From NCBI GenBank assembly GCA_965249275.1, contig CBDFLQ010000007.1:576001-640000 (forward strand): a stretch of 64,000 nt of DNA. Direction: 5' to 3'. Below are positions 7,604-50,562 of this stretch, in pieces. The position numbers and the translations under genes were made by a program. Below the pieces are notes generated by a model. It made no database searches and was not told the DNA's origin. It saw only the letters and a program-made list of their open reading frames with translations. Origin of the DNA: Dehalococcoidia bacterium. Its GTDB lineage: Bacteria; Chloroflexota; Dehalococcoidia; Plut-88900. The number at the start of each line of letters is the position of its first letter. Within the stretch, counting starts at the first letter, position 1.

Positions 7604-8419
7604 TTAGGCAGCGGGAGCTGGCTGGATGCTCGGGGTCCGGCGGTCCAGCACCGAGCCTCCCATGTATCCCAGCCAAATCGGCACCAGTGGCAGGATACAC
7701 GGCGACAGGAACGACAGTATGCCGCCCGCAAACGCTATTATTATCGATGCCCCGCCCATCCCCGTGACTTCGCTGCTGCCCGTTACCTCGGGTATGAAGG
7801 TGAAGTAGGAATTCAGCTGCTGCAGGGAGCCGGTCACAATGAGCGCTCCAATCAACACCAACAGCAGTCCGCTTATCAGCTCAATGAACTCGAGGTACGG
7901 GTTGACCTTCTTCAGCCACCGCTTGGCAACGCCTATGAAGGCCCCGACCAACAGGAATGGCAACCCCAGGCCCAGGGAGTACGCGAACATCAGCACCGCA
8001 CCCTGCCCTATCGAACCCTCCAGTGTCAGGGACAGGATCCCCGCCAGGATCGGGCCCACGCACGGCGTCCATCCTATGGCAAACGCTGCCCCCACCACCG
8101 CCGACCGCATTAGGTTCGGCTTGTCACCCGCCCCAATCCCGATTCCTCTTTGCCGGTACAGAATGCTGGTTAGCGGGCCGAACCGCACAATCCCGCTCAG
8201 GTGAAATCCCAGGATAATCAGTAACGTCCCCGCCCCGATCTCTAGCCAGTCCCGCCAACTCCCCGTCCCGAGGGAACCCAACAGCGCCCCCAGCCCCGTG
8301 AACACCAGCGAGAACCCGGCCACGAACGCTACTGCATGAATGAACGGCGCCGGCGAGAACCCGAGTTTCGCTAGGCCACTCGGTGCGGTCTGCTGCGCTC
8401 CTGTTCCGGGATTCACCAT
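7604..8419 (-). CDS. ccdA: Cytochrome c biogenesis/disulfide transporter CcdA (circularly permuted)
   Basis: Both redox Cys motifs are present (GWTPCVGPIL and GILSFLSPCILPLVP), but in reversed order. Confidence 0.85.
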   Translation of the reverse strand: MVNPGTGAQQTAPSGLAKLGFSPAPFIHAVAFVAGFSLVFTGLGALLGSLGTGSWRDWLEIGAGTLLIILGFHLSGIVRFGPLTSILYRQRGIGIGAGDKPNLMRSAVVGAAFAIGWTPCVGPILAGILSLTLEGSIGQGAVLMFAYSLGLGLPFLLVGAFIGVAKRWLKKVNPYLEFIELISGLLLVLIGALIVTGSLQQLNSYFTFIPEVTGSSEVTGMGGASIIIAFAGGILSFLSPCILPLVPIWLGYMGGSVLDRRTPSIQPAPAA

Positions 8420-8542
8420 AGCGCTAGCGGCTCCTCTCTTGTCCTGTAACCGTTACTCTTAGTATGTCAACAAAAGACCGGCTCGGGCAACAAGTCCCTC
8501 ACACCATTTAACGAATTACTCTAGCAAAAGTTGCCCATTGCA

Positions 8543-9379
8543 TCACGTGCTCTTCAATGACGGACTCGGACCACGGGGCCCTTCAGAACGCTGGCGCACC
8601 AGCAGAAACGCCCCGACTGCGAAGACCGCTACCATCGTTAGCAGAGATATTACATGCGCCTGATGCAAAGACCCTATTCTCCCCGGATCGTCCCGCGTGA
8701 ACTGCACAGCGAACCTTATAGCCGCATACGTCCCGAGATAGATCAGCATCACCATACCGTCGGGCTTCACCCGGCCGATGAGCCGCATTATGACGAAGAA
8801 CAGCAGTACGTCGCCCACCATCTCGTACGCAACGGATGGGTGATACGCAAGCTCCGACCCGCTCTCGGATACGGGAATCGCCGGTCTGCCCGTATTCAGG
8901 CCCGGCCAGTTGGCGTGGGTGTGGACCCAGCCCCACGGCAGACTCGTCCGGGTGCTGAAGTGCTCTCCATTGATCACGTCCCCCACCCGGCCAATAGTCT
9001 GAGCGACCAGCATCATGGGGGCGCTAATGTCGGCGATCTTGCCCACGGACTGCTTATTCAAAATCGCCCAGGTGACACCGGTAATCGTCCCACCTAGCAA
9101 AGCACCCCACAGCCCCACACCGCCATTCCAGATGGTGAATATCTTTACCGGGTCGTTTATGTAATAGGACCAGTTATCAAATACGTGAACCAGCCGAGCC
9201 CCCACCACCCCTCCCGGCACCGCCCACGCTGCGCAGGAATAGATGACCTGGGGGTCCATGCCCCTGTCCCGCGCAAGCCTCGCCGTGCCGAATACCGCAA
9301 ATGCCACCCCCAGGGCCGTGAATATCCCGTGCCACGACAACCCCCCAATCAGAAAGGGGTCCATGTTGATTTCAAGCAT
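8543..9379 (-). CDS. lgt: Prolipoprotein diacylglyceryl transferase
   Basis: GVVGARLVHV, IWNGG, QTIGRVGDVINGE, HPSVAYE and RFAVQFTR motifs. Confidence 0.92.
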   Translation of the reverse strand: MLEINMDPFLIGGLSWHGIFTALGVAFAVFGTARLARDRGMDPQVIYSCAAWAVPGGVVGARLVHVFDNWSYYINDPVKIFTIWNGGVGLWGALLGGTITGVTWAILNKQSVGKIADISAPMMLVAQTIGRVGDVINGEHFSTRTSLPWGWVHTHANWPGLNTGRPAIPVSESGSELAYHPSVAYEMVGDVLLFFVIMRLIGRVKPDGMVMLIYLGTYAAIRFAVQFTRDDPGRIGSLHQAHVISLLTMVAVFAVGAFLLVRQRSEGPRGPSPSLKST

Positions 9380-9452
9380 CCTTGATCTCGGGCTCCGTCC
9401 TTATCGTATAAGTAGTCCGATCAGCTTCACTATCCGTTCACTTCACCCATCC

Positions 9453-9482
9453 AGTGTAGCCTCCCCGCCGAATGTCGGTCAA
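9453..9482 (-). promoter_or_regulatory. Putative sigma70 promoter for lgt; its -35 overlaps the 3' end of the large element
   Basis: Minus strand TTGACC (9482-9477), 18-bp spacer, TACACT (9458-9453). Confidence 0.5.
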
Positions 9483-10218
9483 TCCGCTGTACTTGTTCGG
9501 CAGGTTAGTGACACACCGGCCTTTTCTTCAGTCCTCCAGAGGCGGATGTTCCATCTTCGATTGTGGGGTTTCGGTTTCCGTTCTGTCTGTTGGGTTTTGG
9601 GAAGGCGATGGAAGACGCTTGCTGGACGCTACCCCCGTTCCTGTGCCTCGGGTGCTCCGACGCCCTGGGGCAAGGGCGTCCGGCCCGCTTTTGCCGCTGC
9701 TGCGGCCTCTGGGCCTGTATACGCTGGACATGGGCAGGGACCTTCAGGGCCACCGGGTCCGAGCCTGACTCCGGGGGGTTGGCTGCACCGCTTAAGGGCG
9801 GCTAGGAGGCTCGTCCAGCGTCCGGGTGGAGCCTCTTGCAGGCGTAATATGTCCAGGTTTGCCGGTGCGACCCGGAGCGCAGGGACCACCGGCTCCCGGC
9901 TTGATTGAGCGGACGGTGTACCGAGAGGACCTCGGCGCCGGGCCTATCCGACCGCTATTCCGCTTGAAGGAGCGGCATCTCCGTTAGGAGCCTCACATGG
10001 AACGATAGCGAACCAGGGCGTCTTTCCATCGCCTGGGGGTCAGGGAAGGGGGCACGGGACCCGGTGGGGATGAGGAGATGGCGACTTTCGCTTGTGCCGC
10101 GGGCCTGCGCGAGGGCCGTTGGGATGGGCTGAGGCGTTGAGTCCTCGGGGACCGGGGCTGGGCTTCCCCCTAGGTTGTGGTTCCTCCTTAAGGTAGTTGG
10201 GTTAGGTGGTCTAGACCT
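9478..10218 (-). ncRNA. Candidate large structured ncRNA, copy 1 (~740 nt, family not recognised)
   Basis: Homologous to 48578-49309: conserved 5' domain, 65-nt identical 3' block (9505-9569), 15-bp long-range helix (10018-10033 with 9604-9618), dense hairpins, own promoter, no reading frame conserved between copies. Confidence 0.75.
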
Positions 10219-10224
10219 GGCTAC

Positions 10225-10253
10225 AATATAGAACATACGTCTTATCATGTCAA
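10225..10253 (-). promoter_or_regulatory. Sigma70 promoter of ncRNA copy 1 with a LexA-like box in the spacer
   Basis: Minus strand TTGACA (10253-10248), 17 bp, TATATT (10230-10225). Plus strand AGAAC-ATAC-GTCTT at 10230-10243. Confidence 0.7.
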
Positions 10254-10374
10254 TAGGTTAATGTCACCACTCTATGTGAACGGGATCATCCGCCCGACCC
10301 TCCTTTACCATCCGTTATCGCGTTATGTTAAACTTGTTCGGTATTCATCCTCATATTTATAGGAGAGTGGCAAG

Positions 10375-11307
10375 GTGAAAATAGTAATCGATGCATTTTT
10401 AACTCATCTCACCGTGGAACGCGGCCTTTCCGCCAACACCCTATACGCCTACCGTAACGACCTCTACCAGTTCCTGGAGTTCATCGAAACGGGCCTCGGG
10501 CCCAGGAAGCGTGTCTCCAACTGGGGAGGCGTAGATCGCGACATGGTCGCCAAGTACGGCCTCGATCTCCGGGACCGCACCTTCAAGGACTCCACCATCG
10601 CCCGCAAGATCGCCGCCATCAAGTCTTTTTTCGCGTTCCTGGTCGACGAGGGTGACATCGAGACCGCCCCCACCGAGCATATGAACTCGCCGAAGGTTGG
10701 GCGGGCCCTGCCAAAAGCCCTCTCCGTCGAGGACATCAATAGGCTCTTAACTGCGACCAGGGAACGCAAGACCCCGGATGGCCGGCCTAAACCCGTCTCT
10801 CCCGACAGCCTCCGTGACTGCGCTATGTTGGACCTCTTGTACGCCAGCGGACTCCGAGTCACCGAGCTAGTTTCCCTCAACGTTGCCGACGTCGACATTC
10901 GCAACAACCATGTTCGATGTCTGGGCAAGGGCGGCAAGGAGAGGATCGTTCCCATCCACCAGGAGGCCTCCGAGGCCCTGCGGGAGTACGTCGAGCGAGC
11001 TAGGCCTCGCCTCCGAAAGAAGTTCGAAGAGCAGGCTCTGTTCCTGAACCGCCGCGGCGACCGTCTCACGCGGCAAGGCTTCTGGCTTATCTTGAAGGGT
11101 TACGCAAAAGAGGCCCAGATAAAGACCCCCATAACCCCCCACGTCCTCCGTCATAGCTTCGCCACCCACATGCTCAGAGGTGGCGCACCCCTCAGGCACG
11201 TCCAGGAGATGCTCGGCCACGCCAACATCTCTACGACCCAGGTCTACACCCACCTTGCAAGCGATCAGGTGCGTGACCAGTACGACAAAGCGCACCCCAG
11301 GGCCTGA
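10375..11307 (+). CDS. xerD: Site-specific tyrosine recombinase XerD
   Basis: LTVERGLSANT..AY, LLYASGLRVTEL, GKGGKER, TPHVLRHSFATH, LGHANISTTQVYTH; AGGAG SD. Confidence 0.95.
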   Translation: MKIVIDAFLTHLTVERGLSANTLYAYRNDLYQFLEFIETGLGPRKRVSNWGGVDRDMVAKYGLDLRDRTFKDSTIARKIAAIKSFFAFLVDEGDIETAPTEHMNSPKVGRALPKALSVEDINRLLTATRERKTPDGRPKPVSPDSLRDCAMLDLLYASGLRVTELVSLNVADVDIRNNHVRCLGKGGKERIVPIHQEASEALREYVERARPRLRKKFEEQALFLNRRGDRLTRQGFWLILKGYAKEAQIKTPITPHVLRHSFATHMLRGGAPLRHVQEMLGHANISTTQVYTHLASDQVRDQYDKAHPRA

Positions 11308-11376
11308 GTCTCGGCATTTGCGGCCCCGGTTTCGCGCCGACTATAATCAGACCATAGAAACGCATCAGGACTAAAC

Positions 11377-11745
11377 ATGGCAAAAAAGTCAAAGCGGTTC
11401 GCCGCCAAGCAATCCTCAAGTACCAAGCGAAAGAAGGGTAAGGCGGGACTGTCCCAGCGGCAGATCGAGCTTTCAGGAGTCTCTGCCCCCACTCCCACCC
11501 CTCCCCCCGCAGCCGACGCCGCGGATACAGGGGCCCCTGTCCTTGAGTCCACCGAAGCCCCTGAAACAGGCTCTCCCTCCGAGACCCCGGAGCAGGCTAC
11601 GCAACCTGGACCCCAGGTCGCCGCCCCCGCAGCTGTCGGTGCACCCTGGCGTTACGGCTACGTCCTCACTGACGTCAAGCGCATCGGCCTGATGACTGTG
11701 GTCGTAGCCCTTCTCCTCGGCGCCCTTACTTTCATCCTCAGATAG
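11377..11745 (+). CDS. Hypothetical protein (basic N-terminus, Pro/Ala-rich linker, C-terminal TM anchor)
   Basis: AGGA SD, coding-like codon usage, YGYVLTDVKRIG followed by a TM helix. Confidence 0.7.
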   Translation: MAKKSKRFAAKQSSSTKRKKGKAGLSQRQIELSGVSAPTPTPPPAADAADTGAPVLESTEAPETGSPSETPEQATQPGPQVAAPAAVGAPWRYGYVLTDVKRIGLMTVVVALLLGALTFILR

Positions 11746-12102
11746 CCCCCTCTCTCCATTCATTCCGGCCTGGGGCCGGGATCCAAGAGTGGGGGAATGG
11801 CCGCTTCCCCAGTGGGATTGTGACACCGCCCCGTTGACTAGCGCCGCATTGTTGTACTATCTTCCCCTCCCCACTTGCATCCATCACACACCATCAATTG
11901 CCGATTACAAAACAAGAAAAGCTAACGACACTTCTTCCACAACCTCTGACACCGAATTTTCTCCAGGATGATCAAACAATCAAACATCGTGCCTGATAGC
12001 TGCAAACAATCGTACGCAAAGCTGTTTCCACTTGATTGTCCGCTTTCCTTTTAATTGTCATATGTCAACTGTGCTCAGGCCGCATGCTAGAATTACCTGG
12101 TA

Positions 12103-13935
12103 ATGCCTACGCTCTCTATCGCAGACCAGGTAAAGGCCACGCCCACTAAACCCGGCGTCTACATCTTCCGGGACGCCTCCGGCAAGGTTATCTACGTCGG
12201 CAAGGCCGCGGGCCTGCGCAGCCGAGTCCGCTCCTACTTCGCCGACTCCTCTTCACTCACCCTCAAGGGTCGGCACCTCGCCGCGCGCATCGCCCAGTAC
12301 GAATACGTAGTCACCGATTCCGAGGGCGAGGCCCTCATCCTCGAAAACACCCTCATCAAGCGCTACAAGCCCAAGTACAACGTCCGCCTCAAGGACGACA
12401 AGACATATCCCTACATCAAGATAGACCTGGAAGAGGAGTTCCCCCGCGTCTACTTCACCAGGAGACTGGACGACGAGCGCGGCGCCCGATACTTCGGCCC
12501 CTTCGCATCCGCCAGCTCCGTCCGACGCACCCTGGACCTAATCAAGAAGCTCTTCCCTTACCGGTCCTGCACCAAGAACATCACCGGCACCGACCCGCGC
12601 CCCTGCCTCGACTTCTACATCCACCGTTGTGTCGGGCCGTGCATCGGGGCGGCGTCCAAGGACGAATACCGCCAGGTTATCGACCAGGTCATCCTGTTCC
12701 TCGAAGGGAAGCACGAGACCATAGTCAAAGACCTGAGCGCCAGTATGCACCAGGCCGCCGAGCGTCTCGAGTTCGAGCGCGCCGCCGCCCTCAGGGACCA
12801 GGTACGCGCCATCGACAGGGTATCGCAGACGCAGAAAGTCCACTCCCTACACCTCAAGGACGAGGACTACATAGCCCTGTCACGCGGCCAGGACGAGGCA
12901 TGGATCGAGATATTCTTTGTCCGTGCAGGCAAGACCGTAGGCCGAGACCACTTCATCATGGAAGGCACCCAGGACGAGGGTGACGCCGATATAATGGCCG
13001 GATTCATCAAGCAGTTTTACGACTCGGCATCCTACGTCCCGCCCCTCCTCCTTCTCCAGCACGCACCTGTTGACTCCACCTTGATTAACTCTTGGCTGGA
13101 GAGTAAACGAGGCCGCAGAGTCCATATGAAAGTCCCCCGCCGCGGCAACCGTAGAATGCTGCTGCAGATGGTCGCCGCCAACGCGGAGCAGGGGCTCGCG
13201 CAGCGCCACATCAAGTGGCTGGCCGACGCCGACGCCATCACCGGGGCCATGTCTGAGCTTCAGGAGCACCTCAACCTCCCCGAACTGCCCCAGCGTATGG
13301 AATGCTACGACATTTCCAACATTCAGGGCTCAAACCCCGTCGGCTCAATGGTCGTCTTCGAAAACGGAAAACCCAAGCCTGCCCACTACCGCAAGTTCAA
13401 GATCAAGACCGTCCAGGGCATCGACGACTATTCCATGATGCAGGAGATGCTCCGCCGACGCTTCCGCCGGCTCAAGGACGCCGTCAACGCCAAACCCGAC
13501 GGCTGGACCATCGTCCCTGACCTCGTCCTCATCGACGGAGGCAAGGGCCACCTTGGCGCCATACACCAGCTCTTCCTGGAACTCGGCATCGCCCATATCC
13601 CCCTGGCCAGTATCGCAAAGCGCTACGAGGAGGTGTTCCGCCCCGACAGCAAGGAGCCTATCATCCTGCCTCGCAGTTCGCAGGCCCTCTACCTTGTCCA
13701 GCGCATCAGAGATGAAGCCCACCGCTTCGCCATTACCTTCCACCGGCAACTGCGGAAGAAGAGCAGCGTGAGGTCGGCCATGGACTCTGTCCCGGGCATC
13801 GGGCCCAAACGAAAGAAGGCCCTCATCCGCAGGTTCGGCACGGTCAACGCGATACGCGAGGCCGACACCAGTGAAATCGCAGCCGTGGTCGGGATGACCC
13901 AAAAGCTCGCCGAAATTGTCAAAGAGCACCTCTAA
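12103..13935 (+). CDS. uvrC: Excinuclease ABC subunit C
   Basis: GIY-YIG domain (PGVYIF..IYVGKA), UVR domain, ECYDISN, LIDGGKG, RDEAHRFA and C-terminal HhH. Confidence 0.98.
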   Translation: MPTLSIADQVKATPTKPGVYIFRDASGKVIYVGKAAGLRSRVRSYFADSSSLTLKGRHLAARIAQYEYVVTDSEGEALILENTLIKRYKPKYNVRLKDDKTYPYIKIDLEEEFPRVYFTRRLDDERGARYFGPFASASSVRRTLDLIKKLFPYRSCTKNITGTDPRPCLDFYIHRCVGPCIGAASKDEYRQVIDQVILFLEGKHETIVKDLSASMHQAAERLEFERAAALRDQVRAIDRVSQTQKVHSLHLKDEDYIALSRGQDEAWIEIFFVRAGKTVGRDHFIMEGTQDEGDADIMAGFIKQFYDSASYVPPLLLLQHAPVDSTLINSWLESKRGRRVHMKVPRRGNRRMLLQMVAANAEQGLAQRHIKWLADADAITGAMSELQEHLNLPELPQRMECYDISNIQGSNPVGSMVVFENGKPKPAHYRKFKIKTVQGIDDYSMMQEMLRRRFRRLKDAVNAKPDGWTIVPDLVLIDGGKGHLGAIHQLFLELGIAHIPLASIAKRYEEVFRPDSKEPIILPRSSQALYLVQRIRDEAHRFAITFHRQLRKKSSVRSAMDSVPGIGPKRKKALIRRFGTVNAIREADTSEIAAVVGMTQKLAEIVKEHL

Positions 13936-13951
13936 CCCCGCTCCCCCAAAC

Positions 13952-14848
13952 ATGCCCGATCAAACGCAAAACGCGCTGACAAACCTACAGGAGGGAGTCC
14001 GACTCCTCGACCAAGGTCAGATCAATGAGGCAATCGGCTTATTCGATCTCGCTATCCGGCTCGACGGTACGTTGGTGGACGCTTACCTCCGCCGCTCCGA
14101 GGCCCACAATTTCAAGGGTCAGGCCGGCAAGGCAGTCACCGACGCAACCAAAGCCCTGATGCTCGACGCCCAAAACGCCGGGGCGTACGTCGACCGCGCC
14201 GCCGCATATGTCAACATGGGCAATTTCGAGCGCGCCCTCGCCGACTCCAATGAAGCCATCGCACTGAAGCCCACCGCCGCAGCCCACGTCAACCGGGGCG
14301 CCGCCCACAGGGGTTTGGGTAAAGTCGTCATGGCACTCGGTGATTTCAACAAAGCAGTCGGCCTCGACCCTCGGTATCCCCTCGCCTACAGCCACCGAGC
14401 CAGCGCCTTCCTAACAATAGGCGCTTTCGATAGAGCGATTCAGGACACCACCGCCGCCATTGACCTGGACCCGCACCTGCCCCAACCCTATATCGATCGC
14501 GGTGAAGCCTACAGACACAAAGGTGATTTCGATGCAGCCGTCAAGGACGCCTCCACTGTCCTGAGTCTGCAACCCAATCTCGTCATTGCGCTGGTAAACC
14601 GGGCCGCAGCCTACCTTGACCAGGATTATGCCCCCGACGCCCTCGCCGATTCCGAGGCCGCCCTTAACCTCGACCCGGACAACGTCCTCGCCATTAACAA
14701 CCAGGCCGTGGCACTGGCCAAGATGGGCCGTACGAAAGACGCCCTCGACTCCCTCGCCCGCGCCCTAACGCTCGCCCCGACCGACGAAGTTCGAGCCCAT
14801 ATAACCATGGTCATGGACCGGCTTACCGGCGATCAGTCGCCTTCTTAG
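13952..14848 (+). CDS. Tetratricopeptide repeat protein
   Basis: About eight 34-aa TPR units (AYxxRxxAY...A..D...AI.L.P). ATG 13952 chosen to avoid overlap with uvrC. Confidence 0.9.
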   Translation: MPDQTQNALTNLQEGVRLLDQGQINEAIGLFDLAIRLDGTLVDAYLRRSEAHNFKGQAGKAVTDATKALMLDAQNAGAYVDRAAAYVNMGNFERALADSNEAIALKPTAAAHVNRGAAHRGLGKVVMALGDFNKAVGLDPRYPLAYSHRASAFLTIGAFDRAIQDTTAAIDLDPHLPQPYIDRGEAYRHKGDFDAAVKDASTVLSLQPNLVIALVNRAAAYLDQDYAPDALADSEAALNLDPDNVLAINNQAVALAKMGRTKDALDSLARALTLAPTDEVRAHITMVMDRLTGDQSPS

Positions 14849-14945
14849 CAACATGTCGGTTGCTTGTTGAGGCACCGGATGAAAGTGTCGCCTCTCCACT
14901 TGGTGTAAAATTGACCTACGTCGTCTGATCCCTTTCAACTATCTA

Positions 14946-15614
14946 ATGCGATTCATAATCACCTTGACCCTAATCGTGGCCCTCCTGGGCTTTGCCGCAG
15001 CTTGCAGCTCGGGAGCAGCGCCTACGGCCACCCAGCCCGCGCCCACCCCACCCCCGACCACCCCCCCGGCGACCCCCACCCCAGTCCCTACCGCCCTGAT
15101 CGAATGGTCGGATGAAGACTGCATATTCCGACCCCACGGCGAGTTGGGAGAGCTAACCAGGGTCACGCGTACATATGTCGAGAACGAACCTAAGCGCAAC
15201 GTCGAGCGCCTATTCCTCAAATTCCACCAGTCTGAAGCCGAATCGACCATCCTTCGCTGCGACATGAACACAGCGGGACTCTTCTCGACCTGGTGGGTGC
15301 AGTCTTTCCCCACCGAACAGGACGCCCAACGTCTCTTCGAGTCCCTCATTCTTGTCACCCGCCCCGGAGTCGATAGGCTTAACCAAAACCCTCGGTCCTG
15401 CGCCCTCATCAGAGCCGGAAAGGACGGGCAAGACAGCTACAACCTGGATTTCGTAGACAAGGGCATCTGCGAAAGCAGCGTCTTCAACGGGCTCAGCGGG
15501 ATCGTAATCTATGGCAACACTGTCATAGGCATAGACTCCCAGTTCTACGAAGAGTTCTTTGAGGCTCTCCTGGTCCACGCCAAGGCCCTCGTAGACAAGA
15601 GGACCTCCTCCTAG
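14946..15614 (+). CDS. Hypothetical lipoprotein
   Basis: Signal peptide with lipobox-like FAAAC followed by a Pro/Thr-rich linker. Confidence 0.7.
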   Translation: MRFIITLTLIVALLGFAAACSSGAAPTATQPAPTPPPTTPPATPTPVPTALIEWSDEDCIFRPHGELGELTRVTRTYVENEPKRNVERLFLKFHQSEAESTILRCDMNTAGLFSTWWVQSFPTEQDAQRLFESLILVTRPGVDRLNQNPRSCALIRAGKDGQDSYNLDFVDKGICESSVFNGLSGIVIYGNTVIGIDSQFYEEFFEALLVHAKALVDKRTSS

Positions 15615-15615
15615 C

Positions 15616-16449
15616 TTGCGTGTCCCCGGCCTGTCCCCGACTTCACCTCTGCTTACCAGTGCCCCGACGCGTCCCATACTAACCCTCCGCGCTCTATTCG
15701 AAAACAGGTTCGTCAAGGAGGGTTCGCTCCTGGTCCTCGGGTACATCGTCTACATGTCCCTGCGCCACGTCTTCCTCGAAGAGGTTGAGGCAGTCGGCCG
15801 GACAAACGCCCTCAAAGTAATCGATATCGAGAAATTCCTGGGCATCTACTGGGAGCCCGCACTCCAGTCCCGCCTCCTCTCCGAGGCCTCGTGGATCGTG
15901 ACCTTCTTCAACTGGGCCTATTCTCTGGGTTTTCTACCTGTAATAGTGCCCGGGGCCGTGGCACTCCTCTGCCTCCGCTACGATTCATTCGTCTATTTCC
16001 GAAGGGTGTTCCTCATAAGCTACGTGATTACATGGGTGCTGTGGTTAACCCTTCCCGTCACCCCACCCAGGCTGATGTTAGAAGAGGGCTTCGTAGATTC
16101 CATAGAGGTCATGGGGCCGGCATTCTATAACAGCAAGCAGTCCATCGCGTACTATAACCAACACTCCGCCATGCCCAGCATGCACTTTGGGTGGACCCTG
16201 CTCTTCTCGATAATGCTCCTGAAGACCGGGAGCCGAGCCCTGCGCCTATTCGGTGTCATCCTCCCAATAGTGGCCTTCGCAGCGATAGTCGTGACCGCCA
16301 ACCATTTCTTCCTGGACGCGGTAGTCGGGGGTGGCATCATTGGTCTGGCCTTCGCTATATACCATCTGGCAGCCCGCTCCCCGAAACCACGTGCCTCCTC
16401 CACTCGATCATCGACAATGATAGCACGAAGTGATATCATTTCATCGTGA
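15616..16449 (+). CDS. PAP2-family (AUR1/IPC-synthase-like) membrane phosphatase/phosphotransferase
   Basis: PVTPPRL, AMPSMHFGW and TANHFFLDAVVG motifs. Start uncertain. Confidence 0.85.
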   Translation: MRVPGLSPTSPLLTSAPTRPILTLRALFENRFVKEGSLLVLGYIVYMSLRHVFLEEVEAVGRTNALKVIDIEKFLGIYWEPALQSRLLSEASWIVTFFNWAYSLGFLPVIVPGAVALLCLRYDSFVYFRRVFLISYVITWVLWLTLPVTPPRLMLEEGFVDSIEVMGPAFYNSKQSIAYYNQHSAMPSMHFGWTLLFSIMLLKTGSRALRLFGVILPIVAFAAIVVTANHFFLDAVVGGGIIGLAFAIYHLAARSPKPRASSTRSSTMIARSDIISS

Positions 16450-16709
16450 GGCGGAAGCACCGCAGGACTCTCGCCGCGATATTAGAAACCCCGACTCGGT
16501 CAGGAATTCGTTGGGAAGACATAGAATCGCTCCTCCTAGCCTTGGACGCCGAGATAGAGGAGCGGGCCGGATCCCGGATCGGTGTACGGCTAGAATTGCA
16601 TTTCGCAGTTTTCCATCGTCCTCACCCTCAACCGGAAGCCAGCAAAGATCTTGTAAAAGCCGTCAAACACCTTTTAAGAGAGGCAGGGATCACCAATGCT
16701 GACCTATAA
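16446..16709 (+). CDS. hicA: HicA-family toxin
   Basis: IRWEDIESLL..L...EERAGSR...FHRPHP; overlaps the downstream hicB. Confidence 0.88.
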   Translation: MRRKHRRTLAAILETPTRSGIRWEDIESLLLALDAEIEERAGSRIGVRLELHFAVFHRPHPQPEASKDLVKAVKHLLREAGITNADL

Positions 16710-48541: not shown

Positions 48542-48571
48542 TTGACCTCACCTGAACATCCGTGCTATTCT
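48542..48571 (+). promoter_or_regulatory. Sigma70 promoter of ncRNA copy 2 with a LexA-like box
   Basis: TTGACC (48542-48547), 18 bp, TATTCT (48566-48571) with extended -10 TG. GAAC-ATCC-GTGC at 48554-48565. Confidence 0.65.
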
Positions 48572-48577
48572 CCCCAC

Positions 48578-49309
48578 CGTTCGAATACCAACCCAACTAT
48601 CTCAAGGAGGAACCAAAAACCCAGGGAAGCCCACCCGACCCACCAGAGGATTCAACGCCTCAGCCCATCCCAACGGCCTTCGCGCAGGCCCGCGGCACAA
48701 GTGACCGGCGCCATCTCCTTTTCCCATCGGGTCCCGTGCCCCTTTCCCTGGTAGTCAGGCGATGGAAGATGCCTGGACGGCGTCATAGTGGACCGGCCAT
48801 CCTCCGCCGAGACCCCGTCTCGGTGGTCGGTTAGCAGCGAGCTTACGCTTTATCAAGCATGGGGTGGCGGACCGGCTATCCCCGTCCGAGACTCCCTCTC
48901 GGAAGTTGGCCCGCCTGCGAGCTTACGCCATATCAAGCAAGGGGCCGTTGGGCCGCCTAGACCCTCGGGTGGCCCACGCAAATACGATATCTGAGGGGGC
49001 TACAGCCCGATCACTGGCCCCCATCATGCCTGTGGGCATTCAGAGGCGGGGTCACAGCCGGACTATCTCCCCGGAAAGTCCGTGTTTATCATCGAGCGTT
49101 AGGGGTGGCAGGGCTTCCATGCCTCGGAGCAGCCCAACATCCGCCAGCAAAACGGGGCAAAACCGACCAATCAGCGTCTTCCATCGTCAACCCTCCCAAC
49201 AGACAAAACCCCACCCCACCCCACAATCGAAGATGGAACATCCGCCTCTGGAGGACTGAAGAAAAGGCCGGTGTGTCACTAATCTACCGAACGAGTACAC
49301 CCGATTGAC
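48578..49309 (+). ncRNA. Candidate large structured ncRNA, copy 2 (~730 nt, family not recognised)
   Basis: Homologous to 9478-10218(-). Helix 48758-48772 with 49174-49188 is retained through two G-U pairs. Identical block at 49218-49282. Confidence 0.75.
48790..48944 (+). repeat. Degenerate ~80-nt tandem duplication inside ncRNA copy 2
   Basis: GGACCGGC..CCGAGAC..TCTCGG..GCGAGCTTACGC..TATCAAGCA.GGGG occurs twice (48790-48864 and 48869-48944). Confidence 0.85.
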
Positions 49310-49333
49310 AACCGACCAGTCCAAAAGCATACT
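49305..49333 (+). promoter_or_regulatory. Putative sigma70 promoter for the downstream LLM gene; its -35 overlaps the element's 3' end
   Basis: TTGACA (49305-49310), 17 bp, CATACT (49328-49333). Confidence 0.55.
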
Positions 49334-49383: not shown

Positions 49384-50562
49384 ATGACACTGCCCGACCG
49401 CATGAAGTTCGGCATTTTCATGGCCCCCTTCCATTGGGCCGCCGAAAATCCTACCCTCTCCTTTGAGCGCGACATGGAACTCCTGGAGTGGCTCGACCAG
49501 CTGGGCTACGACGAAGCCTGGATCGGCGAGCATCACAGTGGAGGCTGGGAGACCATCGCTTCCCCGGAGATATTCATAGGCGCCGCCGCCCAGCGCACCA
49601 AGCACATCAAACTGGGCACGGGCGTCCTCAGCCTTCCCTACCATCATCCCCTCATGGTCGCCAACCGCATGATCCAACTAGACCACATGACCCGAGGCAG
49701 AGTGATGATGGGAGTCGGGCCCGGGGCCCTTGTCGGCGACGCCTTCATGCTCGGCATCGACCCTCCTCTCCAGCGCCAGCGCATGGACGAGGCCCTCAAC
49801 ATCATCCTCCGCCTCTGGACCGAGACCGACCCCATCACCTACGAAGCCGACTGGTTTACCCTCAAGGAGGCCACCGTCCACCTTCGCCCATATACTCTGC
49901 CCCACATCCCCGTCGCAGTTGCCGCCTCCTATTCCCCCGCTGGAATGGTCTGCGCCGGTAAATACGGCCTCGCCGTCCTCTCCCTGAACACCATCTCGGT
50001 CCCCGGCGCTGCAGCCCCCGACCTTGCCAAGTTCTGGGACATCGCCGAGGAGACCGCCGACAAGTACGGCAATACCGTCAGCCGAGACGACTGGGGCATC
50101 GTCATTCACGTCCACCTCGCCGAGAGCCGCAAGGAGGCCATAGAGCAGGCCCGAGAGGCCTCAGGCCGCTACCAGAAGGAGTATTTCGAAGACACCCTGG
50201 GCCTGCCAACCGCCTTCGAAGGGCCCCAGGACAAGATCATCGACCACATGGTGGCCACCAATAACTGGTGCGTCGGCACCCCCGACGACCTTGTCGAGAC
50301 CATTCACCGGCTTGAGGAGGAGTCGGGCGGATTTGGAAGACTCCTCATTCAGGCCACCGAGTGGGGAACACGTGAGCAGGTACTCCACAGCTACGAACTC
50401 CTTGCCCGCTACGTAATGCCTCGCTTCCAGGGCTCGGTAACCAGCCTCCACAACTCCCGAGAGTGGTCGGTCAAAAAACGCGAGGAGCTCGTCGCCCTCA
50501 ATATCAAGGCCATGGACAAGGCCAAAGCCGACTACGTCAAAAACGTAGCCGCAGGTCCCTAG
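49384..50562 (+). CDS. LLM-class flavin monooxygenase (limonene 1,2-monooxygenase-like)
   Basis: KFGIFMAPFH, LGYDEAWIGEHHS, LPYHHP and LDHMTRGR; AAGGAGG SD. Confidence 0.93.
   Translation: MTLPDRMKFGIFMAPFHWAAENPTLSFERDMELLEWLDQLGYDEAWIGEHHSGGWETIASPEIFIGAAAQRTKHIKLGTGVLSLPYHHPLMVANRMIQLDHMTRGRVMMGVGPGALVGDAFMLGIDPPLQRQRMDEALNIILRLWTETDPITYEADWFTLKEATVHLRPYTLPHIPVAVAASYSPAGMVCAGKYGLAVLSLNTISVPGAAAPDLAKFWDIAEETADKYGNTVSRDDWGIVIHVHLAESRKEAIEQAREASGRYQKEYFEDTLGLPTAFEGPQDKIIDHMVATNNWCVGTPDDLVETIHRLEEESGGFGRLLIQATEWGTREQVLHSYELLARYVMPRFQGSVTSLHNSREWSVKKREELVALNIKAMDKAKADYVKNVAAGP

Follow-up and report, generated by a model that had tools for sequence, protein, structure and literature searches.

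Two loci in a 64,000-nucleotide stretch of the genome of a Dehalococcoidia bacterium (GenBank assembly GCA_965249275.1, contig CBDFLQ010000007.1, positions 576,001 to 640,000; hereafter the window) each contain a pair of complementary segments, called the clamp, that can form a 15-bp helix around a hairpin-rich central domain. Both loci, copy 1 and copy 2, are members of a dispersed repeat, and the helix is probably the closing stem of an expansion-segment-like centre in a promoter-driven non-coding RNA that is carried by a protein-less transposon. The transcript would extend for approximately 0.55-0.75 kb from the element's own promoter, and its carrier would be an element of 0.74-0.9 kb, devoid of protein genes and equipped with TG...CA ends and a 5-bp target duplication, that inserts 5 bp upstream of a host -35 box and is co-oriented with the host gene. 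The stem would connect the end of a C-rich 5' arm to the start of a C/A-rich 3' tail and make the hairpin-rich middle a self-contained folding unit. As in an expansion segment, the closing stem alone would be fixed; the interior would diverge, duplicate hairpins, gain nested small repeats, lose pieces, and be swapped whole by recombination between dispersed copies via their conserved arms. This reading builds on the observed anatomy of the element, its mobility signatures, the conservation and covariation of the helix, the homology of the centres and their range of lengths, and a single recombinant allele. A literature search (full text, outside subscription journals) found no description of this repeat family.

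The closing helix

The initial annotation of the window reported two 15-bp helices, each enclosing a domain of nearly the same length and of barely alignable sequence. The observation of the two helices is confirmed, with exact coordinates (Table 1). On the minus strand, GGCGATGGAAAGACGC of copy 1 pairs with GCGTCTTCCATCGCC, leaving one bulged A and enclosing 399 nt, and on the plus strand, GGCGATGGAAGATGC of copy 2 pairs with GCGTCTTCCATCGTC, with two G-U pairs among the 15 and 401 nt enclosed. Direct alignment also bears out that the two centres barely align pairwise. A repeat search of the window recovers the clamp inverted repeats of both copies, as well as GACGCCCT/AGGGCGTC and CTGGACAT/ATGTCCAG, which are two of the four hairpins originally named inside copy 1. 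Compared with dinucleotide shuffles, the enclosed domains fold with z = -3.09 (copy 1) and z = -3.34 (copy 2); the opposite strands give nearly equal values in the same test (-2.78 and -3.13, respectively). The clamp is the outermost stem in the single-sequence folds of both copies and in the consensus folds of all seven subfamilies that were folded.

Support for the four named hairpins of copy 1 is uneven when they are set against the consensus fold of subfamily A, the 13 copies to which copy 1 belongs. In particular, the GAGGCUC/GAGCCUC hairpin shows a compensatory switch from U-A to C-G (UA in six copies, CG in six), and the GACGCCCU/AGGGCGUC hairpin is kept in the consensus fold. GCCGGUG/CACCGGC is matched only in part, by an overlapping helix in another register, and CUGGACAU/AUGUCCAG is missing from the consensus fold and carries an uncompensated mismatch in 8 of the 13 copies.

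Loss of the helix among further copies is not general. In this genome it is kept in 53 of the 54 copies, and the sole exception, e03, is truncated and misses the 3' strand. Sixty copies were sampled from eight congeneric genomes as the best BLAST matches to the 5' arm of copy 1, which is not a random sample; 57 of them keep the helix, and the three misses comprise two copies without the 3' strand in the retrieved DNA and one doubtful match. The resulting 110 copies hold 43 distinct helix variants, with 14-15 bp in 105 copies, and 1606 of the 1650 clamp cells pair (97.3%). When 3' strands are dealt among the copies as a shuffled control, 90.7 +/- 0.6% of the cells pair, and all 500 shuffles stay below the observed value. 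Hardly any variation occurs in the outer 11 bp. Positions 12-14 covary (AT 61 / GC 41, CG 59 / TA 37, and GC 58 / CG 47) and switch jointly between GACGC/GCGTC and GGTCC/GGACC, and the two clamp types coincide with two super-groups of centres. In three congener copies (L130, L136, and L137), the 3' strand is one base shorter and the 5' strand has one bulge, at a place where relatives have a U-U mismatch. Selection on the helix at the RNA level is likely, and the idea of a clamp, a conserved and covarying helix whose enclosed domain changes far more rapidly than the arms on either side, holds well beyond the two loci from which it was drawn.

Descent and exchange of the central domain

From the two loci, it had been proposed that selection acts on the size and shape of the centre, as would be expected of a swappable domain (for cargo, specificity, or template) attached to a constant scaffold, and widely variable centre lengths had been named as evidence to the contrary. 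Such lengths were found: the enclosed segment ranges from 326 to 512 nt in this genome and from 189 to 480 nt in the 57 congener copies, which gives a range of 189-512 nt over the 110 copies. These centres fall into 16 clusters, and hence at least 16 subfamilies, with typical lengths from 189 to about 480 nt. The cluster of copy 1 has 13 members (398-454 nt); the centre of copy 2 stands alone in this genome and clusters with four copies of one congener (G007; 424-427 nt). Moreover, the centres are not unrelated cargo. Profile searches via intermediate subfamilies identify them as diverged collinear homologues, linking type A (copy 1) to types C, F, and D, and type D to copy 2 (E ~1e-10, small set); between the two centre super-groups, the profile search gave no link. 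Since the centres are collinear homologues, common ancestry is the simplest explanation for two lengths as close as 399 and 401 nt.

The differences in length can be followed in individual copies. The centre of copy 2 contains a 79-nt tandem duplication of a hairpin module (48790-48944), and the longest centres contain nested small repeats (e.g., 135 nt in e11 and 80-105 nt in e39). Shortening by deletion reaches 189 nt in one congener. When 53 centres were compared with the genome by BLAST, matches outside the family appeared in 10 copies only and correspond to the nested small repeats. A specificity or template role is not supported for the centres of copies 1 and 2: beyond the family itself, they match nothing in the host genome (E < 1e-3) or among 50,697 phage and 72,556 plasmid records.

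Swappable modules, on the other hand, are directly visible, as whole centres do move between copies. On contig C4, a variant of the copy 1 region (93% identical) has an element inserted at the identical position and bordered by the same GCGGA duplication; compared with copy 1, the flanks of this element show 97% and 91% identity. Its promoter and leader share 70% identity with copy 1 and 91% with copy e36; its centre, of 480 rather than 399 nt, is 99% identical to that of e36 and 36% identical to that of copy 1; its 3' tail shows 76% identity to copy 1 and 67% to e36. Judged from these identities, the C4 element arose by recombination, and its joint lies close to the 3' clamp strand. Furthermore, each of the three promoter/leader types of the family occurs with centre types A, C, and D. 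Of the size- and shape-selected swappable domain, exchange and the clamp have stood, and fixed length, unrelated cargo, and a template role have not.

Contig C4 (9,145 bp) as a whole is a second version, 92-94% identical, of approximately positions 7800-16600 of the window, and contig C3 parallels part of C6. Strain variants or duplications are accordingly present in the assembly, a point to be kept in mind for copy counts.

Two further pairings were considered and rejected. A block of the 5' arm (the GGGTCCCGTG region) has an 11-13-bp match in the centre of copy 1, but this match is subfamily-specific, and no general complementarity between the block and the centres was found (mean z = -0.06, n = 79). 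The consensus folds also show additional helices immediately inside the clamp, but their duplex energy (-13.2) does not differ clearly from that of cross-cluster controls (-11.4).

The element and its insertion sites

A search with nhmmer in this 2.9-Mb, 7-contig genome gives 54 copies of the 5' arm and 35 matches to the 3'-arm profile, 31 of which are paired with a 5' arm. Searching 401 genomes of the class for a 28-nt motif of the 5' arm, with up to 3 mismatches allowed, yields 54 occurrences here and 23-57 per genome in eight congeners; neither the motif in the 392 other genomes nor the reversed control pattern gave any match. All 53 readable copies possess their own sigma-70-type promoter (9-11 of 12 matches), located 24-42 nt upstream of the 5' arm. 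The promoter is followed by a palindromic leader, the motif AAGGAGG, the C-rich 5' arm, the first clamp strand, the centre, the second clamp strand, and the C/A-rich tail, in this order. The 5' arm comprises approximately 160 nt with several invariant blocks; AAGGAGG is invariant too and has no start codon behind it. Stabilizer elements resembling Shine-Dalgarno (SD) sequences occur at the 5' ends of Bacillus mRNAs, and by analogy AAGGAGG could bind 30S subunits and stabilize the transcript.

The family has three promoter/leader types, each with its own palindrome at the same place. These palindromes, near the predicted transcription start, are GGTCTAGACC, GTTCGAAC, or 12-mers such as GATTGGCCAATC, GACTGGCCAGTC, and GGCTGGCCAGCC, and the variants of the 12-mer retain their symmetry via paired changes. 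The leader palindrome could be an operator for a dimeric regulator or a site of RNA-RNA pairing.

Sixteen of the 54 copies have both a recognizable left end (TGATCCCGTTCACATAGAG...) and a right end (...CCGAACGAGTACA). These complete copies measure 739-902 bp and have TG...CA ends; a 5-bp target duplication is perfect in 10 of them and matches at four of five bases in three more (e25, e40, and e48). The terminal inverted repeat is imperfect: aligned by eye, the left end TGATCCCGTTCACATAGAGGGGTGACA and the reverse-complemented right end, TGTACTCGTTCGGTAGATTAGTGACA, have TG, CGTTC, TAGA, and GTGACA in common, in this order. The remaining 38 copies have other left modules and no recognizable duplication; copy 2 belongs to them, with a left end of a different type.

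The right end lies at a fixed distance from a host promoter. At 16 of 26 right ends, at least four of six bases match TTGACA at +6..+11, which corresponds to an offset of 5 bp, and 17 start with TTG at that place, in most cases accompanied by a suitably spaced -10-like hexamer. For at least 35 of the 54 copies, the feature directly downstream is a co-oriented gene with a Pfam match (E <= 1e-5). The functions of these genes are diverse, and among them are lgt, leuS, uvrA, def, ribF, argC, and metE. Searches with the left- and right-end motifs found no transposase-bearing element with matching ends in this 87%-complete genome.

Table 1. Positions of the two copies and neighbouring host features in the window.
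Feature	Position	Strand	Remark
Copy 1, whole element	10288-9488		801 bp, bracketed by two GCGGA
Copy 1, left target-site duplication GCGGA	10289..10293	.	identical to 9483-9487
Copy 1, left end TGATCCCGTTCACATAGAG...	10259..10288	-	imperfect terminal inverted repeat with right end (reverse complement aligned by eye); motif in 16 copies and at one orphan site in the genome
Copy 1, own promoter TTGACA-17-TATATT	10225..10253	-	11/12 matches
Copy 1, palindrome GGTCTAGACC	10208..10217	-	at or just past predicted transcription start
Copy 1, conserved C-rich 5' arm	10034..10194	-	nhmmer, 54 genome copies
Copy 1, invariant SD-like AAGGAGG	10189-10183	-	inside 5' arm
Copy 1, clamp 5' strand	10018..10033	-	16 nt, one bulged A
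Copy 1, variable centre	9619..10017	-	subfamily A, 399 nt
Copy 1, clamp 3' strand	9604..9618	-	
Copy 1, C/A-rich 3' tail	9517..9603	-	optional small hairpin TCCGCCTCTGGAGGA
Copy 1, right end ...GTGTCACTAACCTGCCGAACAAGTACA	9488..9516	-	26 right ends in genome
Copy 1, right target-site duplication GCGGA	9483..9487	.	
Host lgt promoter TTGACC-18-TACACT	9453..9482	-	begins 5 bp past element end
lgt open reading frame	9379-8543		downstream of copy 1; Pfam LGT match
Copy 2, own promoter TTGACC-18-TATTCT	48542..48571	+	upstream TG
Copy 2, conserved 5' arm	48599..48757	+	AAGGAGG at 48604-48610
Copy 2, clamp 5' strand	48758..48772	+	
Copy 2, variable centre	48773..49173	+	401 nt
Copy 2, clamp 3' strand	49174..49188	+	two G-U pairs with 5' strand
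Copy 2, 3' tail and right end ...CCGAACGAGTACA	49189..49299	+	
Host promoter TTGACA-17-CATACT	49305..49333	+	5 bp past copy 2 right end
Luciferase-like monooxygenase gene	49384-50562	+	downstream of this host promoter

Parts of the element are also found on their own or in unusual settings. A solitary left end (TGATCCCGTTCACATAGAGGGGTGACATCAACCCC; contig C6:928830, minus strand) adjoins the -35 box of the groES-groEL promoter, which bears an inverted repeat like CIRCE (controlling inverted repeat of chaperone expression), TTAGCACTC-N9-GAGTGCTAA; this left end may be the deletion remnant of an element. A hairpin unit of the 3' tail (~27-38 nt, ...CCGCCTCTGGAGGAC...) is present inside some elements in one, two, or three copies and also lies away from the RNA element (C5:477289-478308, C6:223112, C7:657266, and others); on C5, two units stand in tandem, 44 nt apart. 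Inspection by eye points to putative tRNA genes downstream of e13 (C5:615138) and e19 (C6:81085), with promoter-like sequence between. In congeners, the 5'-arm motif is occasionally doubled at a distance of 85-88 nt (e.g., G004 C1:50823/50908, 667285/667372, and 1322394/1322480; G008 C1:1317941/1318029), which suggests an internal duplication of part of the 5' arm.

Transcription, alternative explanations, and related systems

Contigs from RNA libraries match the 5' arm of copy 1. In three runs, from at least two studies, their summed depth in 10016-10116 amounts to 102, 16, and 42. They cover 10016-10217 and fall to zero over 10218-10419, which comprises the left end and the promoter and is repeated in 16 copies, and they are likewise absent over lgt. 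In one run, perfect-match contigs span from the 5' clamp strand into the centre of copy 1. Outside the 5' arm, cover is thin or absent, and such gaps were given no weight. Within the centres, 4 of 133 pairs covary in subfamily A, where 12 cells changed on both sides compared with 4.7 in shuffles (a value reached in 0 of 500), and 6 of 139 centre pairs covary in the cluster of copy 2. Promoters directed at the opposite strand were found in neither copy 1 nor copy 2. Sequence constraint is tightest in promoter, 5' arm, outer clamp, and tail, so it is there rather than in the centre that function is expected. We infer that selection acts on the helix in RNA and not in DNA, that function resides on the promoter strand, and that the arms rather than the centre carry the function.

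Several points weigh against this reading. The RNA-library contigs reveal neither strand, ends, nor level, and they may include carried-over DNA. No intrinsic terminator was found on the sense strand of copies 1 and 2, so the transcript may be a long leader of the host gene instead of a free RNA. The opposite strand yields the more stable fold in 105 of 110 centres, owing to the C-richness of the sense strand (G 28.5%, C 35.0%), and pairs predicted on both strands include G-U in 51 cases and A-C in 36. The wobble pairs of the clamp had been taken as an argument about the strand, since the two substitutions of copy 2 work only on the promoter-predicted strand; this holds for copy 2, but family-wide the excess is weak (35 G-U versus 20 A-C cells). 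Neither folding energy nor the balance of G-U and A-C assigns the strand. Most paired columns are invariant within a subfamily, which lowers the power to detect covariation, and the covariation of the clamp separates two lineages only, so that one block replacement is possible in place of stepwise compensation. Finally, no function, partner, or target of the RNA was found.

In one alternative, the family is a selfish repeat without RNA function, and the clamp and hairpins are palindromic relics of a mobile element, kept by recent spread and gene conversion. Such a repeat is rather unlikely. In its favour are the transposon nature of the element, with its target duplications, the directly visible gene conversion among copies, the equally good folds of the two strands, the small surplus of G-U over A-C, and the scarcity of paired columns that vary within a subfamily. 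However, the clamp persists in nine genomes and across two lineages whose interiors are unalignable even by profiles, and an unselected 15-bp complementarity would decay. Clamp pairing also exceeds that of all 500 shuffles. In addition, conservation is highest in promoter, 5' arm, and clamp rather than in the transposon ends: the promoter is present in 53 of 53 readable copies and a recognizable left end in 16 of 54. The size- and shape-selected swappable domain of the initial annotation, acting for instance as a guide or template, has become improbable. Its modules are indeed exchanged and combine freely with the three promoter/leader types, the closing helix is kept whatever the centre, and the enclosed lengths of copies 1 and 2 are 2 nt apart; yet the spread of lengths over 110 copies, the collinear homology of the centres, the nested small repeats or duplication that explain the long outliers, the lack of matches to the centres of copies 1 and 2 outside the family, and the lack of general complementarity with the 5'-arm block all speak against it.

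The clamp might instead serve at the DNA level, as the recombination sites of an inverton or, if the scaffold houses a small nested transposon, as the terminal inverted repeats of the latter. An intergenic segment of 190-510 bp just upstream of genes is indeed flanked by 15-bp inverted repeats that are perfect or nearly so, and compensatory changes preserve symmetry in DNA as they do in RNA. This is nevertheless very unlikely: among the 110 centres there were no minus-strand BLAST matches (E <= 1e-5), the contigs mapped to the locus show no strand-changing joint, this genome has no centre-plus-clamp unit outside the context of 5' arm and tail, and in no copy are the arms joined directly, the shortest enclosed length being 189 nt. 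That the repeat is a degenerate coding remnant, derived from a phage terminase large subunit, with an incidental helix, is highly improbable. Some copies of subfamily B do have stop-free sense frames of 200-266 codons, and public assemblies contain predicted proteins over such copies (34 matches). However, in a set of 110 open frames (110 aa or longer) taken from the 54 copies, neither terminase nor any other credible Pfam family was found (three chance-level matches, E 0.06-0.4, far below cut-offs), and a Pfam domain is present in none of the 34 database homologues and none of 30 aligned members. The 16 longest frames match no PHROGs family (one chance match, E 0.26), and neither a single frame nor a 30-sequence profile matches a PDB sequence, the best hits being unrelated (E 0.14 and 0.16). 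The translations are rich in Pro, Ser, Arg, and Gly and are without start codons; the 5' arms of copies 1 and 2 are a 1-nt indel apart, and the longest sense frames reach 104 and 156 codons. A coding origin was rejected on the negative outcome of seven tests, all at the sequence level.

If the promoter-driven RNA is functional, the element would be a bacterial transposon with a large structured RNA as cargo instead of a protein, which places itself at a fixed distance from the promoters of dozens of housekeeping and metabolic genes. It would join three subjects that are mostly treated separately, namely promoter targeting by mobile DNA, large ornate RNAs, and the modular evolution of RNA domains. 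It is possible, though doubtful, that the family represents a new class of large mobile RNA gene: a promoter-homing transposon that gives rise to a strongly transcribed ornate RNA of ~0.6 kb, whose arms would act on the adjacent gene or on the translation or transcription machinery and whose centres would be exchanged as cassettes. The clamp would then gather the invariant arms, i.e., AAGGAGG, the C-rich single strands, and the leader palindrome, which might pair two molecules, and cassette exchange of the centres would provide each genome with a repertoire of variants. With 23-57 natural variants per genome, one scaffold with its closing helix, and at least 16 interiors, the family is a comparative set for RNA expansion domains. 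Even as selfish DNA, it would amount to strong promoters directed into host genes over ~1.4% of the genome (an estimate from 54 x ~0.75 kb in 2.9 Mb), and this promoter load matters for the annotation of uncultured Dehalococcoidia genomes.

Among known elements, the closest parallels are promoter-bearing MITEs (miniature transposable elements with inverted repeats). In one review, the Correia elements of Neisseria and the QMITE1/2 elements of Coxiella, which encode small RNAs, are described as non-autonomous, protein-less, multi-copy, and intergenic, with sigma-70-like promoters; they mostly lie just upstream of genes, and their transcripts fold stably (PMC10969869). The present element is likewise non-autonomous, protein-less, multi-copy, intergenic, promoter-bearing, and located upstream of genes. 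However, it is much longer (739-902 bp), its interior consists of a conserved 5' arm, a domain of 190-510 nt closed by the clamp, and a tail instead of a simple fold-back of the ends, it sits at a fixed 5-bp offset from a -35 box, and no matching autonomous partner was found in the genome. Terminal inverted repeats, a target duplication, and the lack of an internal transposase agree with a MITE; the size (typically <0.5 kb in MITEs) does not and is closer to that of a mobile insertion cassette. In such cassettes, e.g., MIC231 of Bacillus cereus, terminal inverted repeats flank ~1 kb of non-transposase cargo that is mobilized in trans. The cargo here is a promoter and a non-coding RNA rather than a protein gene, and mobilization in trans is putative.

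In size and complexity only, the RNA (~0.6 kb, many helices, non-coding) is comparable to OLE, ROOL, GOLLD, raiA, and HEARO. Unlike these RNAs, it has no Rfam match: none was found at the gathering score over the window, including T-box, riboswitch, and other leader models, and only chance-level matches appeared at E <= 10 over both loci. It also differs from the large ornate RNAs in its occurrence on a transposon, in 23-57 copies per genome of one genus among the 401 genomes, in the C-richness of its sense strand, and in its weaker covariation support. OLE, ROOL, and GOLLD are reported to form RNA-only oligomers (PMC12286853). The variable domain of the present RNA resembles the expansion segments and variable regions of rRNA and RNase P RNA by functional analogy, not homology, and differs from them in that it makes up more than half of the RNA. 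Expansion segments have a fixed closing helix in a conserved scaffold and an interior that is free in sequence and length through the gain or loss of helices.

The TG...CA termini and the 5-bp target duplication are features that the element has in common with IS481. The same genome harbours at least 12 copies of a 1,056-bp element with ends TGTAGATGTCAGG...CCTAACACTTACA and a 329-codon transposase frame, which we take, from its end sequences and size, to belong to the IS481 family. Most of these copies are 97-99% identical to one another; three of them lie at C3:7843-8898, C7:509988-511067, and C7:521098-522153, the latter two beside e43 and e44. The ends of this IS481-like element (TGTAGATGTCAGGTAATTCGTTGACAGA) and those of the RNA element have only a short motif in common, CGTT..A.A..AGA, at a different offset. 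The two elements also differ in target: the RNA element inserts at promoters, whereas the IS481-like element inserts at a hairpin resembling repetitive extragenic palindromic (REP) sequences (GTCATTCCGAGGCNCCGCGAGGAATCT), with a 5-bp duplication ATTCC. This REP-like unit often adjoins RNA elements that are without the usual ends.

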